Below the pieces are notes generated by a model. The model saw only the letters and a program-made list of their open reading frames with translations, was not told where the DNA came from and made no database searches. Both the position numbers and the translations under genes were made by a program. DNA of 64,000 bases from Candidatus Nanoarchaeia archaeon (lineage in GTDB: Archaea > Nanobdellota > Nanobdellia > Woesearchaeales > JANQNE01): assembly GCA_028279725.1 (NCBI GenBank), contig JANQNE010000004.1:12008-76007 (forward strand). The letters run 5' to 3'. Shown here piece by piece: positions 5,747-31,805 of the stretch; position 1 is the stretch's first letter; each line of letters starts with the position of its first letter.

Positions 5747-5985
5747 TGGATGAGTATAAGCTAGAAGAGATCAGATGCAGAGTCTGCAAACAAGAGTTGA
5801 AAAAAGAAGAATTTCATTCAACTTTTTCAGGAAACCTGCACTACAAGACAACAACCTGTTCGTGCGGGAAAGAGGTAAACATACCTGTGAAGTTCCATGG
5901 ATCCGGAAAAGAAAAATGGGATGGGGATGTTGCTAAAGGAAAAGGAGAGGAAGAATCGATCGAGATGAAACTGGTGCTGGAATGA
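5734..5985 (+). CDS. small zinc-ribbon-like protein (hypothetical)
   Basis: 83 aa (or 79 aa from ATG 5746, which overlaps the porA stop). CRVC...CSC cysteine pairs. Wedged between porA and porB. Confidence 0.4.
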   Translation: MDALMDEYKLEEIRCRVCKQELKKEEFHSTFSGNLHYKTTTCSCGKEVNIPVKFHGSGKEKWDGDVAKGKGEEESIEMKLVLE

Positions 5986-6091
5986 CAATAGTGGATTACG
6001 CGGCAAATTTTTGCGAAAAATTTGATAAAAAGCAGGCGACATTTTGCCTTCGGCAAAAGTCCCCTAAATATTGGTGCTAGAATGACAATAG
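5972..6091 (+). repeat. ~80-nt hairpin-rich insert flanked by 20-nt direct repeats at the porB junction
   Basis: TGGTGCTGGAATGACAATAG (5972-5991) and TGGTGCTAGAATGACAATAG (6072-6091) lie exactly 100 nt apart. Both copies contain ATGACAATAG, the porB start. Two hairpins lie between them. Confidence 0.6.
6001..6031 (+). repeat. conserved hairpin motif, copy 2 (CGGCAAA-T-TTTT-GCG-AAAAA-TTTGAT)
   Basis: 8-bp stem AAATTTTT/AAAAATTT. Same flanks as the copy at 4201-4231. A second hairpin, TTTTGCC-TTC-GGCAAAA, lies at 6042-6058. Confidence 0.5.
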
Positions 6092-11406: not shown

Positions 11407-13122
11407 TTACTTTTTGTATTCTAAAGAAGCTTTGATGAATTCCATATATAATGGATTTGGCTGTAATGGTTTTGATGAGAATTCCGGGTGGAACTGGACA
11501 CCTACGAAGAATGGGTGTTCTGGGAGCTCTAGGATCTGCATTATGTCTTCACTTGGAGTCATTCCTGAGAATACAACTCCGTTTTTTTCGAAAATCTTCC
11601 TGTATTCTGGGTTGAACTCATATCTGTGTCTGAATCTTTCTCTTGCCAAAGGCTTTTTTCCGTAAAGTTCCCATGCTTTTGTGTCTGGCTTTAGTTTAAT
11701 GTCTTGTCCGCCAAGACGCATGTTGCCTCCAAGACCCTCTTTTTCTAACTGGTCTGGCAGTAAGCAGATAACTGGATGCTTTAGCTTATCAAAGTTCTCT
11801 TCTGTGTTTGCATTCTTTAGTTTGCAGATGTTTCTTCCGATCTCTAAAGCAGCCATCTGGAACCCATAACAAAGCCCAAAGTAAGGAAGATTGTTTTCCC
11901 TTGCGTATCTTATACATTCGATCTTTCCTTCAGTTCCTCTTACCCCAAAACCTCCTGGGACAATAATTCCTGAGATCCCTTCTAATTCTTCTTTTACTTT
12001 GTCTTTTCTTCTTTCGATAAGTTCTGTGTTTATGAACTTGATATCAACTTCAGTATCATATAGTGTTCCTGCATGTTCGATAGCTTTTATGATACTTGCA
12101 TATGTATCTCTTGAGCCGATGTATTTTCCAGTTATACCTATAGTTATCTTGTTTTTTGGATTTGAGAATTTTGTAACATATTTTTTCCAAGCATTTTCGA
12201 GTTTTTTGTTATTTTTTGGTCTTATGTTGAAATATTTTATGATCATCTTATCTACGTTTTGATCCTTTAGTCTTTTTGGGACCAAGTAGATAGATTTTAG
12301 GTTTGGAAGAGAGACAACTTTTTCTGCTCCTATTAATCCTCTTGCACCGATCTTTTCTCTTACTCCAGATTCAAGCTCATGTTCTGATCTTACAACTACT
12401 AAATCTGGCTTTGATCCTATCAGTGAAGAGAATTCGTCGATGCTCTGCTGAGCAGGCCATGTCTTCTGCTCGTTAAGATGGGCTGGCTTGTCTACATATA
12501 CATTGTGGATGTATGAAACGTTTTCTTTTCCTTCTTCATATACAAATGTCTGCATAGCTTTGAAATATATCCTTGATTCTTCATCTCCCACTTTTCCGCC
12601 TATTTCGATCAATGTTATGTCTGCGTTTGTTGCCATAGCTGATTCTCTTATCTTTCTTGTAACTGCTCCTACTTTGTGCGGGAAGAACTGGACTGTCTTT
12701 CCTTCAAACATTCCCTTTCTTTCCAGCTTATGTAATTGTTTTTCTATCATTCCGTTTGTGAAGAAATTATTTTTTGAAAGGTTTTTATTTAATAATGATT
12801 CATATGATCCTAAGTCCATGTCTGTCTCTAATCCGTCGTCTAATACGAAGACTTCACCATGCTCAAAAGGATTTAATGTTCCTGAGTCTACATTATAGTA
12901 TGATTCTAATTTTATTGGATTGCATCTGAATCCTTTATTTTGAAGAAGCTGTGCTAAGGATCCTGATGTGATCCCTTTTCCTACGCCGGAGATGACACCT
13001 CCTGTCACGAAGATGTATTTGGTCTTTCCGATCTTATATCCTTTCGGAAACTGAGACCACTTTTTATCCTTAAATCTTCCAGAAAACTTCTGAAGTACCT
13101 TTAGTCTTTTATTGTCTGCCAT
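11407..13122 (-). CDS. pyrG: CTP synthase
   Basis: 571 aa. N-terminal YIFVTGGVISGVGKG, and a C-terminal glutamine amidotransferase domain with GLCYGFQ and HPEF. Confidence 0.95.
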   Translation of the reverse strand: MADNKRLKVLQKFSGRFKDKKWSQFPKGYKIGKTKYIFVTGGVISGVGKGITSGSLAQLLQNKGFRCNPIKLESYYNVDSGTLNPFEHGEVFVLDDGLETDMDLGSYESLLNKNLSKNNFFTNGMIEKQLHKLERKGMFEGKTVQFFPHKVGAVTRKIRESAMATNADITLIEIGGKVGDEESRIYFKAMQTFVYEEGKENVSYIHNVYVDKPAHLNEQKTWPAQQSIDEFSSLIGSKPDLVVVRSEHELESGVREKIGARGLIGAEKVVSLPNLKSIYLVPKRLKDQNVDKMIIKYFNIRPKNNKKLENAWKKYVTKFSNPKNKITIGITGKYIGSRDTYASIIKAIEHAGTLYDTEVDIKFINTELIERRKDKVKEELEGISGIIVPGGFGVRGTEGKIECIRYARENNLPYFGLCYGFQMAALEIGRNICKLKNANTEENFDKLKHPVICLLPDQLEKEGLGGNMRLGGQDIKLKPDTKAWELYGKKPLARERFRHRYEFNPEYRKIFEKNGVVFSGMTPSEDIMQILELPEHPFFVGVQFHPEFSSKPLQPNPLYMEFIKASLEYKK

Positions 13123-13199
13123 ATTCTTTATAGAATCTATCAGAACCCCTTTTTACTAATGATTTTTTTGTTATTGTTAATAAAGATTTCTATACTCTA

Positions 13200-13289
13200 G
13201 CATAGCACGCTTCGTTCGCTTCTCTTATGGAGGTGAGCCAGATTTATCTGACTTAGATCTTTATCCTAGAACTTCGCTTGGTGCTATGC
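13200..13289. ncRNA. candidate structured RNA/element, copy A (family with 29907-29997)
   Basis: 90 nt closed by a 9-bp stem GCATAGCAC/GTGCTATGC. Shares GCTTCG, GCTTCT, CAGATTTATCTG, CGCTTGG and a trailing TTTAA with copy B. Three stem positions differ by compensatory pairs. Confidence 0.4.
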
Positions 13290-13290
13290 T

Positions 13291-13869
13291 TTAAGCAAAT
13301 ACTTGCATTATGCTCTGGAAGAAATTATATCCATCAAATCCCCTTATAGGCAGCATGTTGAATATTGAAAGGAACAGGTTAAGCTTTCCCATTATGAAGA
13401 CCATCGGATGATATTTCTTATGGATCCAGTTGTATTTTACTGCAGCTGTGCATAAGAGGAATATTATGAAATTAGTTAGAGGTCCTGCTATAGAGACCAT
13501 GGCTGATGGGAAAGGAGCAAGTGCTGTATGAGCTACATATCCTCCGACAAAGAAGATCAGTGGGAAATTTATCAGTTTAAGTGCTATGACTATTGCATAC
13601 ATAGTGTAAGGAGCATGTAAAGTTGCTGTTGCTCCGTAAGACATAGCTACAAATTTATGTGCGAATTCATGCAGAACTATCGCTGGAGCAGCTATCATCA
13701 TGCTGTGCTTTAGATCTTCCCAGAAATCGCTTTTTTTCATATGGAGCAAAGGGTCGTAATCTCTGTGATGATGCGGTTTTGGTATGCGTTTGAACATATC
13801 TTTGAAAATAAAGCCTATAGCAAAGATCATTATCAGAATATCAACGATTTCCTGCGGTGTTATTAACAT
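13291..13869 (-). CDS. M50-family (site-2 protease-like) membrane metalloprotease
   Basis: 192 aa and polytopic. HEFAHKF zinc motif plus NMLPIRGFDGYNF. Confidence 0.65.
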   Translation of the reverse strand: MLITPQEIVDILIMIFAIGFIFKDMFKRIPKPHHHRDYDPLLHMKKSDFWEDLKHSMMIAAPAIVLHEFAHKFVAMSYGATATLHAPYTMYAIVIALKLINFPLIFFVGGYVAHTALAPFPSAMVSIAGPLTNFIIFLLCTAAVKYNWIHKKYHPMVFIMGKLNLFLSIFNMLPIRGFDGYNFFQSIMQVFA

Positions 13870-17824: not shown

Positions 17825-18579
17825 AAAGAGCGACTATAATAAAACTAAAGAATGTATGGAAGATTTATCAGATGGGAGATGTTGAAGTCAAAGCTTTAAG
17901 AGGACTGGATCTTGAGGTCAAGGACGGGGAGTTTGTATCAGTGATGGGTCCTAGCGGATCCGGAAAGAGCACTGCTGTAAACATGATCGGATGTTTGGAT
18001 ATCCCTACAAAAGGAGCGATATACCTTGATGGAAAAAATATTGCTCATCTTGAGGAATCTGAGCTTGCGCAGATAAGAGGAAGAAGAATAGGATTCATAT
18101 TCCAGCAGTTCAATCTTATCCCTACATTAAGTGCAGTTGAGAACGTAACTTTACCAATGATGTTCCAGAATAAATCAACAGCAGAAGAAAGGAGACAAAG
18201 AGCAGAGAAACTTCTGACGATGGTTGGACTTGGAGACAGACTTTACCATAAGCCGACTGAATTGAGCGGAGGACAGCAGCAGAGAGTTGCTATAGCAAGA
18301 TCTATCGCGAACGATCCTGAAGTAATCTTGGCAGATGAACCTACTGGAAATCTTGATTCTGTGACAGGAAAAGTTGTTATGGATTTTTTAGCAGAGTTGA
18401 ATGAAAAGGAAGATAAGACAATAATCATGGTCACGCACGACAGGTATGTTGCAGAGCATGCTGACAGGATAGAATATCTTAAGGATGGTGTGATTGTAGA
18501 GAGTAAGGAAAAAAGAAAAAGAATGAAAAGAAGATTCCTAAATGGAAGAAATCATAATCTTGAGGTGCGGAAAAATTGA
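17821..18579 (+). CDS. ABC transporter ATP-binding protein (MacB/LolD-like)
   Basis: Walker A GPSGSGKST, signature LSGGQQQRVAIAR, Walker B ILADEPT. The C-terminal ~25 aa run into the left copy of a direct repeat. Confidence 0.9.
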   Translation: MKRATIIKLKNVWKIYQMGDVEVKALRGLDLEVKDGEFVSVMGPSGSGKSTAVNMIGCLDIPTKGAIYLDGKNIAHLEESELAQIRGRRIGFIFQQFNLIPTLSAVENVTLPMMFQNKSTAEERRQRAEKLLTMVGLGDRLYHKPTELSGGQQQRVAIARSIANDPEVILADEPTGNLDSVTGKVVMDFLAELNEKEDKTIIMVTHDRYVAEHADRIEYLKDGVIVESKEKRKRMKRRFLNGRNHNLEVRKN

Positions 18580-18670
18580 AAATTCCGAGAAATGCTAAGC
18601 ATTTCTGGAACAAGAAATTCAAAATGAATTTCTTTGTTTTTTGCACCATCAAAATTATAATCTTGAGGTG
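18549..18670 (+). repeat. ~84-nt hairpin-rich insert flanked by 19-nt direct repeats at an ABC-operon junction
   Basis: AAATCATAATCTTGAGGTG (18549-18567) and AAATTATAATCTTGAGGTG (18652-18670) lie 103 nt apart. The repeat carries the RBS of the downstream gene. Three hairpins lie between, enclosed by GGTGC/GCACC. Confidence 0.55.
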
Positions 18671-25660: not shown

Positions 25661-25733
25661 AGCCTCTGGTGGGAATTGCACCCACGACCTTCTGCTTACG
25701 AGGCAGACGCAATAGCTACTATGCTACAGAGGC
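25661..25733 (-). tRNA. tRNA-Thr (anticodon CGU)
   Basis: Cloverleaf: acceptor GCCTCTG/CAGAGGC, anticodon stem TCTGC/GCAGA with loop CTCGTAA, T stem GTGGG/CCCAC. No encoded CCA; discriminator is U. The T-loop reads TGCAATT (G at position 55). Confidence 0.85.
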
Positions 25734-28177: not shown

Positions 28178-28308
28178 GGTGTTGCACACATTCGCTTTTT
28201 CATCGACAGGTTTATATATTTTTTCTACTATTACTATTAGTTGTCGACGGAAAAAGTGGTGTTGCACAGATCCGCAAATGCATTAGTGCAACGCCTAAAA
28301 TTGTGCAA
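28178..28308. other. nested inverted/direct repeat structure in an intergenic region
   Basis: 18-nt direct repeats GGTGTTGCACA[CG]AT[TC]CGC at 28178 and 28258. Inverted repeat CTTTTTCATCGACA / TGTCGACGGAAAAAG around a 33-nt AT-rich loop. 10-bp hairpin GGTGTTGCAC...GTGCAACGCC. Outer pair TTGCACA/TGTGCAA. Confidence 0.35.
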
Positions 28309-29456: not shown

Positions 29457-29774
29457 TTAAGAAGCTCTTGTAAATCTGTCTTTCAGGCTGCCAAGAACAT
29501 TATGGAGATTTTTGACTTCTGCTATGAATTTCCTTAGATTCCAGGCAGACTCTCCCTGGCTTTGCTCAGCCTGAAGTGCATCCTGGAGCTTGCCTGCGAG
29601 GTTTTCTAAGAAAAGGAGGTGTTCTTTTACAGTATTACGATCCTGGTAGAGGTTATTTACAATCATCTTTTTGATCTCGTTGATACTATCTTTATCATGA
29701 TATTCTATCTTGTATGGTTCTGGAACTATTCCAGCGTCCATTTCTAGAACTTCGTCATATTCAGTTACTGGCAT
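29457..29774 (-). CDS. hypothetical helical protein
   Basis: 105 aa, predicted helical, no recognisable motif. Confidence 0.5.
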   Translation of the reverse strand: MPVTEYDEVLEMDAGIVPEPYKIEYHDKDSINEIKKMIVNNLYQDRNTVKEHLLFLENLAGKLQDALQAEQSQGESAWNLRKFIAEVKNLHNVLGSLKDRFTRAS

Positions 29775-29906
29775 ACATAAAACCCCCTACACCTGGGCTA
29801 TGTAAGTAAAGCAAATATATAAATGTTTCGCTTATTATATAAAAATAGCTACAATTATATATAAAAACGAAAAGCTTATAAAAGCATCCTTTTTGGCTTT
29901 TATTAA

Positions 29907-29997
29907 GCATATTGCGCTTCGCCAGCTTCTGTTATCTTTCCTTTTTCAGATTTATCTGTAATCGAGAAAGCACAGAAAGCTACGCTTGGCAATATGC
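29907..29997. ncRNA. candidate structured RNA/element, copy B (family with 13200-13289)
   Basis: 91 nt closed by a 9-bp stem GCATATTGC/GCAATATGC. Same conserved blocks as copy A. CTTATAAAAG (29875-84) lies about 27 nt upstream, and TTTAA follows. Confidence 0.4.
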
Positions 29998-30047
29998 TTT
30001 AATCTATACCACTAAATTTATTAATGGAAAGCTGATTTCTAAGGATT

Positions 30048-31805
30048 ATGCCAAGAATAGCTGTTGTAAAGAAGGAAAGATGTAATCCAAGCGGGTGTGG
30101 CGGCTATCTTTGCATGAAGCTTTGTCCTGTAAACAGGCAAGGTGAGGAATGCATTGCCAAGGATCCTGCTGATAATAAGGTCAAGATAGATGAAACCCTA
30201 TGCACTGGCTGCGGAATATGTGTAAACAGATGTCCATTTGAGGCTTTGTCTGTAATAAATCTGCCAGATGAATTGGCAAAGCAGCCGATACATAAGTATG
30301 GAAAGAATGGTTTTCATCTTTATAATCTGCCGACACCAATATTTGGAAAGGTTGTCGGTGTTTTGGGAAGGAATGGAATAGGAAAGTCTACTGCGATAAA
30401 GATACTAGCTGGTGTTTTGAAACCTAATCTTGGAAATGAAGAGGAAGCTGACTATAAAGAGCTGATAGATTTCTTTAAAGGAAGCGAAGCACAGAAATTT
30501 TTTGAACAAGTGAGAGATGGAAAGATAAAGATCGGCTATAAGCCTCAGGCAGTTGATCTTATACCTAAGAAAACTAAGGGAAAAGTAAAGGAATTGCTGA
30601 AAAAGGTTGATGAAAGAAAGAAATTTGATGAGATGGTTGACAGGTTAGAGCTGAAAGAGATATTGGACAGAAATATTAGTGATCTTTCTGGTGGGGAGCT
30701 GCAGAGAGTTGCTATTGCTGCAACTGTGCTGAAAGATGCTAACTTGTATATATTTGACGAGCCAACATCTTATCTTGATATAAAGCAGAGAATAAAGGTT
30801 AGCAAGTTTATCAGGGAGTTAGCTGATGAGAATACAGCTGTTATTGTTATAGAACACGACCTGATAATATTAGATTATATGACTGATCTAGTGCATCTTA
30901 TGTATGGTAAAGAAGGAGTTTATGGTATTGTTTCTCAGCCAAAGACAACAAGAGTTGGAATAAATGTCTATCTTTCTGGTTATCTTAAGGAAGAGAATAT
31001 GAGATTTAGAGATAAAGAAATAAAATTCTATGTAAGGCCTCCCGAGAAAAAAGAAAAACATATCCATCTTACATCATGGAAAGGAATATCACAGAAGTTA
31101 GGAAGTTTTAGTTTAGAAGCTAAAGAAGGAGAGCTTTTCAAGCATGATGTTGTGGGAATATTGGGAGAGAATGGAATAGGAAAGACATCTTTTGTAAAGA
31201 TACTGGCTGGAGTTTCTAAACAAGATAAAGGAGAGATAACTGAGAAAGTCAAGGTTAGCTATAAGCCTCAGTATATTGATTCTGAATCTGATGAATTAGT
31301 TGCGTCTGCTTTGGGAGAGGCTGTAGGCAAATATGATGTTCAGCTGATAAGGCCACTACAGCTGAAGAATCTTTTAACAAGGAAGATCAATGAATTAAGC
31401 GGTGGAGAATTACAGAGAGTTGCAATTGCTTTATGTTTATCTCAGAAAGCTGATCTGTTTTTGCTTGACGAACCATCTGCTTACTTAGATGTTGAGCAGA
31501 GACTTATAGTCTCAAGAGTTGTCGGAGATATGATGGAGCAGAGCGGTGCAAGTGCTTTGGTTGTTGATCATGATGTGCTGTTTTTAGATTATTTAAGCAA
31601 AAGACTACTGATATTTGATGGAAAGCCTGCTATTAACGGAAGTGCTAAGGGTCCATTTACTATGCAGGAAGGGATGACTAATTTTTTGAGAGATCTTGCT
31701 ATAACTTTCAGAAGAGATCCTGAATCTAATCGTCCCAGGGCGAATAAAGAAGGTTCAGTAAAAGACAGAGAGCAGAAGAGTTCTGAGAAATATTATTATC
31801 TTTAG
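30048..31805 (+). CDS. abce1: ABCE1 / RNase L inhibitor-type ribosome recycling ATPase
   Basis: 585 aa. N-terminal double 4Fe-4S domain (CTGCGICVNRCP) and two ABC cassettes (GRNGIGKST, GENGIGKTS; 2x LSGGELQRVAIA). Confidence 0.95.
   Translation: MPRIAVVKKERCNPSGCGGYLCMKLCPVNRQGEECIAKDPADNKVKIDETLCTGCGICVNRCPFEALSVINLPDELAKQPIHKYGKNGFHLYNLPTPIFGKVVGVLGRNGIGKSTAIKILAGVLKPNLGNEEEADYKELIDFFKGSEAQKFFEQVRDGKIKIGYKPQAVDLIPKKTKGKVKELLKKVDERKKFDEMVDRLELKEILDRNISDLSGGELQRVAIAATVLKDANLYIFDEPTSYLDIKQRIKVSKFIRELADENTAVIVIEHDLIILDYMTDLVHLMYGKEGVYGIVSQPKTTRVGINVYLSGYLKEENMRFRDKEIKFYVRPPEKKEKHIHLTSWKGISQKLGSFSLEAKEGELFKHDVVGILGENGIGKTSFVKILAGVSKQDKGEITEKVKVSYKPQYIDSESDELVASALGEAVGKYDVQLIRPLQLKNLLTRKINELSGGELQRVAIALCLSQKADLFLLDEPSAYLDVEQRLIVSRVVGDMMEQSGASALVVDHDVLFLDYLSKRLLIFDGKPAINGSAKGPFTMQEGMTNFLRDLAITFRRDPESNRPRANKEGSVKDREQKSSEKYYYL

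Follow-up and report, generated by a model that had tools for sequence, protein, structure and literature searches.

The window, which is the whole 64,000-nt stretch of DNA analysed here, belongs to a DPANN archaeon (Woesearchaeota), and the best named homologues of its ABCE1 and pyrG are from Candidatus Woesearchaeota. Its G+C content is about 36%, and the sequence is present in only one public sequencing run, a coral metagenome sequenced as DNA. Two intergenic sites in this window carry related copies of a short palindromic element. Copy A lies between the stop codon of a small M50-like membrane protease gene and the promoter of pyrG, and copy B lies between ABCE1/RLI and a conserved orphan gene transcribed in the opposite direction. 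The features at the two loci are as follows.

11407-13122, minus strand: pyrG (CTP synthase), flanking copy A
13176-13191, minus strand: pyrG BRE/TATA block AGAAATCTTTATTAAC, separating copy A from pyrG, conserved whether or not a relative has the element
13199-13290, no strand assigned: copy A with one extra closing pair, 10-bp perfect TIR AGCATAGCAC / GTGCTATGCT, between the M50-like stop codon and the pyrG promoter
13208-13223, plus strand: copy A 5' blocks CGCTTCG-NNN-GCTTCT, conserved
13239-13250, plus strand: copy A near-palindrome CAGATTTATCTG, 12 nt, conserved
13275-13281, plus strand: copy A 3' block CGCTTGG, conserved
13291-13869, minus strand: small M50-like membrane protease gene, flanking copy A, with its stop codon at 13291-13293
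29457-29774, minus strand: conserved 105-aa orphan gene, flanking copy B
29868-29884, plus strand: BRE/TATA-like block CGAAAAGCTTATAAAAG, ending 22 nt before copy B, conserved in element-free relatives
29905-29999, no strand assigned: copy B, 11-bp perfect TIR AAGCATATTGC / GCAATATGCTT, between the divergently oriented 105-aa orphan gene and ABCE1
29915-29930, plus strand: copy B 5' blocks CGCTTCG-NNN-GCTTCT, conserved
29947-29958, plus strand: copy B near-palindrome CAGATTTATCTG, the apical hairpin of the rod
29983-29989, plus strand: copy B 3' block CGCTTGG, conserved
30048-31805, plus strand: ABCE1/RLI, flanking copy B

Copy A (90 nt, 13200-13289) and copy B (91 nt, 29907-29997) have the coordinates and the shared orientation given in a first-pass annotation of this DNA, and the gene positions bear out its statement that both are intergenic; no credible ORF is present in the 90-95 nt of either copy. 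The shared blocks listed in that annotation were all recovered, co-linear and with identical spacing: GCATA, CGCTTCG, GCTTCT, TTAT, CAGATTTATCTG, CGCTTGG and TATGC, followed by TTTAA. Outside these blocks the aligned columns of A and B are essentially randomised, and the spacer of the element is fixed in length while its sequence is free to vary. The similarity of the two copies is far beyond what chance would give. Their global alignment scores 17, whereas 2000 dinucleotide shuffles average -14.4 and never exceed 7 (z = 6.5), and the interior by itself gives z = 4.8; the pattern GCTTCG-N(2-8)-GCTTCT occurs twice in the window with 0.01 occurrences expected, and the 3' block pattern twice with 0.22 expected. 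The CGCTTCG and CGCTTGG boxes are direct repeats (6/7 identical) and not inverted ones (3/7), and they lie 67 bp apart in the duplex. A direct reading of the sequence places them opposite each other in the folded hairpin, where they form a quasi-symmetric internal loop.

The element had been described as two-copy, which is correct within the window but an undercount for the organism, because a third copy (copy C) lies elsewhere in the same assembly. It was found by aligning contigs of the source metagenome to copy A at 80% likeness; no further B-like copies of at least 80% were found in that metagenome. Copy C is A-like, aligning to 13202-13287 with 10 mismatches in 86 positions (88% identical), and sits on a contig of 25,878 nt with a depth of 26.2x, compared with 27.7x and 26.3x for the window's contigs. 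Its flanks are unrelated to those of A, and the TTTAA flank common to A and B is missing. On the minus strand, the upstream flank of C is an open frame that appears, from nine codons, to end in a TGA overlapping the element, and the downstream flank GCGAAATCTTTAAAAA resembles the local promoter consensus. There are therefore at least three homologous copies at unlinked sites. A covariance model built from A and B, as the first-pass annotation had proposed, added no homologs when run on the window, on adjoining contigs (16 kb) and on sequence from relatives (about 110 kb), and the scan of the window's own sequence was also null with the filters off.

The closing stem is present and paired, and is longer than first described: the perfect inverted repeat extends over 10 bp in copy A (13199-13208 / 13281-13290) and 11 bp in copy B (29905-29915 / 29989-29999). 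The compensatory changes reported at stem positions 6, 7 and 8 are real, with G-C, C-G and A-T in A replaced by T-A, T-A and G-C in B, so that both arms differ at all three pairs and pairing remains complete. In copy C the two outermost stem positions are GA...TC in place of the GC...GC of A, and the next two bases outward are complementary as well (ATGA...TCAT), giving at least four complementary outer pairs with 4 of the 10 differences placed; the stem of C would reach 11 bp only if its remaining arm bases match those of copy A. Among the three copies at least five stem positions have changed, all of them in a complementary manner, and the preservation of pairing through two-arm changes thus holds for A, B and the outer pairs of C. 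The stem by itself is less informative. Inverted repeats of 9 bp at this spacing number 32 in the window against about 18 in shuffles, and since such repeats are frequent by chance it is the homology of A and B, and not the stem alone, that carries the significance. A shuffle test of the covariation is powerless with two sequences (67 of 500 shuffles reach the observed value), and because the three changed pairs are adjacent they may represent one or two mutational events rather than three.

The orthologous sites in related genomes were compared next to those of the window. At site A the closest relative available is L134, with 78% identity in M50; the same sample also yielded L002 (ABCE1 90% identical). 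The empty site of L134 reads ...TTTGCTTAA GCATAGAAATCTTTATTAAC... (...GCTTAA|GCATAGAAATCTTTATTAAC), with GCATAG present once, and the A/B covariance model has no match on L134. Two further features of the window are needed for this comparison.

13190-13195, minus strand: native GTATAG outside copy A, a 5/6 direct repeat of the first six bases of the element, GCATAG (13284-13289, minus strand)
13196-13290, no strand assigned: 95-nt stretch missing in L134, the deletion of which restores a gapless alignment of the M50-pyrG junction

With these 95 nt removed, the window aligns to L134 without gaps through the junction, at roughly 85% identity by eye. The element is likewise absent from L009/L010 (79% pyrG) and L136, in which the M50 stop abuts the same BRE/TATA block. 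As far as the sequence goes, the GCATAG/GTATAG pair at A could reflect a target duplication, microhomology, or loss by slippage at a repeat.

In the more distantly related L011 (69% pyrG), this M50-pyrG junction is occupied by a different hairpin with a perfect 12-bp stem. It reads CATAGTATCTGA-N22-TCAGATACTATG (L011:7893-7938; DNA fold z of -5.0), and its outer arm CATAG/CTATG is identical to that of copy A. Three origins are conceivable: a separate insertion event, distant kinship with the element after strong divergence, or templating of the hairpin on the native ATAG next to the promoter.

At site B, L002 has promoter boxes on either side that are almost identical to those of the window, and between them the element is scrambled into the fragments GGATAGCA..CGCTTGGTGCTATTCAT..GGCAATATGC, the fold of which is not significant (z = -0.29). 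No element is present at this site in L004 (78%) or L003 (79%). The relic itself (L002:1238-1315) mixes an A/C-type 3' arm (CGCTTGGTGCTATTCAT, like the 3' end of C) with a B-type 3' arm (GGCAATATGC), and it looks as if one element was inserted into, or recombined with, another before decay. A relative with neither element keeps the gene order of the window across the 16.9 kb from A to B, and the idea of A and B as att sites bracketing an island was rejected on this ground.

In these alignments the element is not conserved at orthologous sites and is a presence/absence polymorphism among close relatives. The orthologous-position test for a conserved cis-regulatory RNA of pyrG or ABCE1 accordingly failed, with site A empty in L134, L009 and L136 and site B empty in L003 and L004 and degraded in L002. 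Because the sites are empty or degraded while the promoters beside them are intact, the element is gained, lost and degraded on a shorter timescale than that of promoter change, and copies, once present, decay quickly. A translational role for copy B in particular was considered: two segments of copy B (within 29934-29999) can pair in nested order with the ABCE1 start codon region and codons 8-12 (within 30041-30081; 17/22 and 12/13), and the minimum free energy fold of 189 nt pairs copy B with the ABCE1 start, with a z of only -2.1. Equally good complementarity exists elsewhere in the window, and regulation of ABCE1 translation by B was rejected as a probable chance pairing.

The position of the copies relative to promoters can be read against the local consensus, a purine-rich BRE followed by a TATA box (AGAAATCTTTATTAAC, CGAAAAGCTTATAAAAG). 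On the minus strand, copy A sits 1 nt past the M50 stop and 6 nt ahead of the pyrG BRE. It had been proposed that copy A, read on the minus strand, would lie in the pyrG 5' leader; however, it is upstream of the pyrG BRE/TATA block, which also occurs in element-free relatives. The related suggestion that a TATA-like box precedes each copy is meaningful for B, which starts about 27 nt downstream of a BRE/TATA centre on the plus strand, but for A the adjacent box is that of the pyrG promoter, which is directed away from the element. Since the CGAAAAGCTTATAAAAG box is conserved in relatives that lack the element, it is not B's own promoter, and B was inserted downstream of a promoter that already existed. 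Copies A and C both lie right after stop codons on the minus strand (a probable stop in the case of C), with the neighboring promoter pointing away. The copies thus do not share one transcriptional sense, and this speaks against a strand-specific RNA gene.

Two observations on the promoters themselves can be added. Between the 105-aa orphan gene and ABCE1, positions 29806-29886 of the window contain three or four BRE/TATA-like boxes (TTATTATATAAAAATAG, AATTATATATAAAAACG, CGAAAAGCTTATAAAAG), and the same run of boxes is present at L002:1150-1230, L004:9850-9935 and L003:20-75, where it is far better conserved (in 78% to 90% relatives) than the adjoining spacer. The boxes might be multiple promoters, or a platform for TBP/TFB or for a regulator. 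In L009, the called start of pyrG (596 aa, in a 79% relative) is probably too far upstream, as it leaves a BRE/TATA inside the called ORF (L009:10001-10076); the ATGGCAGAC start common to the window and L134 lies at about 10074.

The interpretation that we prefer, with a confidence only a little above even, is that this is a low-copy, lineage-specific, non-coding palindromic insertion element of the MITE or REPIN kind. The first-pass annotation had taken the covariation as the mark of a selected RNA (or cruciform) structure and as an argument against a mobile element. That argument is not supported, given the clean indel at A and the relic, or nothing at all, at B. The comparison of orthologous sites weighs most here, and compensated stem changes have other sources: compensatory changes on the two sides of a hairpin are common in REPINs (PMC3116915), and template switching during replication yields multi-base compensatory changes in a single step (PMC8794818). 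The insertions are found where little space is left, either between a stop codon and the promoter that follows or between two divergent promoters. Flanks resembling target-site duplications can be proposed for each copy (GCATAG/GTATAG in A, imperfect and overlapping the TIR; TTA/TTA in B if the TIR is taken as 10 bp; TT/TT in C), and all are weak and AT-rich. The highest MITE densities reported for archaea include that of a woesearchaeal genome (PMC11602168).

Several findings stand against a mobile element. Only A and B occur in about 80 kb of the genome, with one more copy of at least 80% in the source metagenome, and beyond the blocks A and B have diverged far more than the products of a recent MITE burst would have. 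The target-site duplications are inconsistent between copies; the subterminal boxes are direct and not inverted, which is atypical for MITEs mobilised by DDE transposases; and the terminal positions covary between copies, which is unusual for TIRs bound by a transposase.

A comparison with described systems places the element near several of them. Like REPINs (Bertels & Rainey 2011, PMC3116915), it is intergenic, about 100 nt long and non-coding, and consists of one long hairpin with conserved ends, a spacer constrained by length and pairing, and compensatory changes; both are also vertical, lineage-specific and prone to decay. REPINs, however, are bacterial, occur in tens to hundreds of copies and have the REP GTAG motif and a single-copy RAYT gene, whereas three copies of the element are known, its host is archaeal, and it has no GTAG-type REP. 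Only its outer 10-11 bp are inverted, and the adjacent boxes are direct repeats in place of two inverted REPs.

MITEs (50-800 bp, with a TIR of at least 10 bp, non-coding, intergenic, polymorphic in insertion) are also similar, and a flanking repeat is seen at one copy. The element has a suitable size (90-95 nt) and TIR (10 bp in A, 11 bp in B), and its unlinked copies are polymorphic (A empty in L134, L009 and L136; B in L003 and L004). It is unlike MITEs in its inconsistent target-site duplication, very low copy number, covarying TIR positions and non-inverted boxes.

With the IS200/IS605-derived PATEs and other HUH-recognised elements it shares the lack of a clear target-site duplication and what appears to be conservation of the hairpin rather than of the duplex sequence. 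Copies A and B also follow TTAAA on the minus strand, a PATE-like trait that is missing in C. The ends of IS200/IS605 elements are two separate subterminal hairpins in the same orientation, whereas here one hairpin closes the whole; no TnpA or TnpB gene was seen nearby, and no solitary arms with IS-like spacing were found in the sequence examined.

Integron attC sites resemble the element as imperfect palindromes of similar length that conserve structure more than sequence and abut the 3' end of a gene. The test for attC was negative: the element ends in GCATA...TATGC, without R''/R' core sites (RYYYAAC / GTTRRRY), cassette array or integrase, and the flanking genes are housekeeping genes that are syntenic in element-free relatives. 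With its inconsistent target duplication and low copy number, the element is not assigned to any named family.

If the element is mobile, its active form would be a folded single strand, either ssDNA in replication or transposition or possibly RNA, bound by a trans-acting protein that may recognise the stem and the symmetric loop. The direct-repeat boxes face each other only in the hairpin, as a dimeric protein would prefer, and this favors the folded form as the state that is recognised, although by inference. The stem would stay paired because only perfect copies propagate, or because template switching from arm to arm homogenises the two arms; selection on the folded strand is a further possible reason for its perfection. 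Effects on the neighboring genes, such as a hairpin at the M50 3' end or in the ABCE1 5' leader, would be by-products. Descriptions of RAYT/REPIN systems have to date come from bacteria (PMC5581495). The more specific proposal of an archaeal REPIN counterpart in DPANN, in which a host dimeric enzyme of the HUH type or of a new type uses or propagates the folded ssDNA or RNA hairpin, is one that we regard as distinctly unlikely.

Among the alternatives, a lineage-specific family of structured RNAs survives best, and we consider it unlikely. The element would then be a protein-binding hairpin with a symmetric loop and an apical hairpin, acting in cis in UTRs (the 3' end of the M50 mRNA and the ABCE1 5' leader) or as a small stable RNA. 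The stems are fully compensated in three copies, with no disruptive changes seen (4 of the 10 differences of C being placed), and the loop blocks show no change at all amid otherwise saturated sequence; this conservation between the most diverged copies fits a functional RNA or a protein site equally well. Both strands of A and of B fold better than shuffles, with z from -3.2 to -4.5, and on the minus strand the loops are purine-rich in a way that is typical of RNA motifs (a CAA bulge, then G.A / N.A / A.G). The start of B just downstream of a BRE/TATA centre would also suit a transcript. However, neither orthologous site of the closest relatives holds more than a degraded element, the copies are opposite in sense with respect to promoters, and no strand is consistently transcribed from a promoter of its own. 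The interior folds differ as well, A being branched and B one long rod, with only the closing stem and the small central hairpin in common, and there is not one G.U among about 30 stem pairs.

Searches for known RNA families provide no further support for this alternative. At the gathering threshold, Rfam detects only a tRNA-Thr (25661-25733) in the whole window, and with E-values up to 10 the two loci give only chance matches with bit scores far below the cut-offs. ARAGORN found no tRNA at either locus. The statement in the first-pass annotation that the element matches no tRNA, C/D, H/ACA, 5S or SRP architecture is upheld by these two programs, and inspection by eye revealed neither C/D boxes common to the two copies nor an ACA following the stem; K-turns (stem-NNN-GA / GA-stem), BHB motifs, T-loops and 7-nt anticodon loops were likewise not seen. 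A structured-RNA role, or a REP-like role at mRNA 3' ends, is possible alongside mobility, since the two are compatible and not mutually exclusive.

It is quite improbable that the copies are orientation-independent hairpins at transcript 3' ends (terminators or insulators) that were recruited repeatedly between packed genes. Copy A is suitably placed between the M50 stop and the pyrG BRE, copy C overlaps a probable stop and precedes the promoter-like GCGAAATCTTTAAAAA, and L011 has its own perfect 12-bp hairpin at the A junction. Three relatives, including the closest, nevertheless have no hairpin at this junction, B does not follow a gene, T-runs are missing downstream of the hairpins, and the conserved non-palindromic blocks are left unexplained. 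Archaeal termination, moreover, is not known to require a hairpin. Finally, a purely mutational origin, in which local inverted duplications were made and kept perfect by template switching with neither mobility nor function, is very improbable, for although the three compensated positions are contiguous, as one template-switch event predicts (PMC8794818), and other short hairpin inserts with flanking direct repeats are found in the genome and its relatives, the three unlinked copies share long co-linear non-palindromic blocks that local template switching cannot produce, and such blocks at unlinked loci mean that the sequence must have moved between loci.

No family members were found outside the lineage in scans of public collections, which were weak. 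In public genome contigs the pattern GCTTCG..CAGATTTATCTG..CGCTTGG has one match, in GC-rich Lachnospiraceae DNA with no flanking stem, which is attributed to chance. A loose pattern has at least 120 matches in public metagenome contigs, and those listed are GC-rich and lack complementary arms (6/9 at most). Two patterns had no match in public viral contigs, and BLAST against phages and plasmids returned only chance matches of 25-28 nt.

If the element is mobile, as we prefer to read it, it would be one more small repeat family in a DPANN genome and a possible strain marker, and it would exemplify how a very compact genome takes up insertions in the small space between a stop codon and the promoter that follows. 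If a cognate enzyme specific for single strands exists, biology of the REPIN/RAYT type would be extended to archaea, and a stable transcript, if real, would raise the importance of the element. A caution also follows for similar cases, in that fully compensated stem changes between paralogous copies are not by themselves proof of a functional RNA.

A separate insert was observed in the pyrG leader of L011 (7985-8045), where AAAAAGAGGT ... ACCTCTTTTT ... AAAAAGAGGT folds into a hairpin whose first arm is then repeated directly, an extra 60 nt or so relative to the window. It resembles the repeat-flanked hairpin inserts of the window at 5972-6091, 18549-18670 and 28178-28308, which points to repeated insertion by fold-back or template switching in this lineage.
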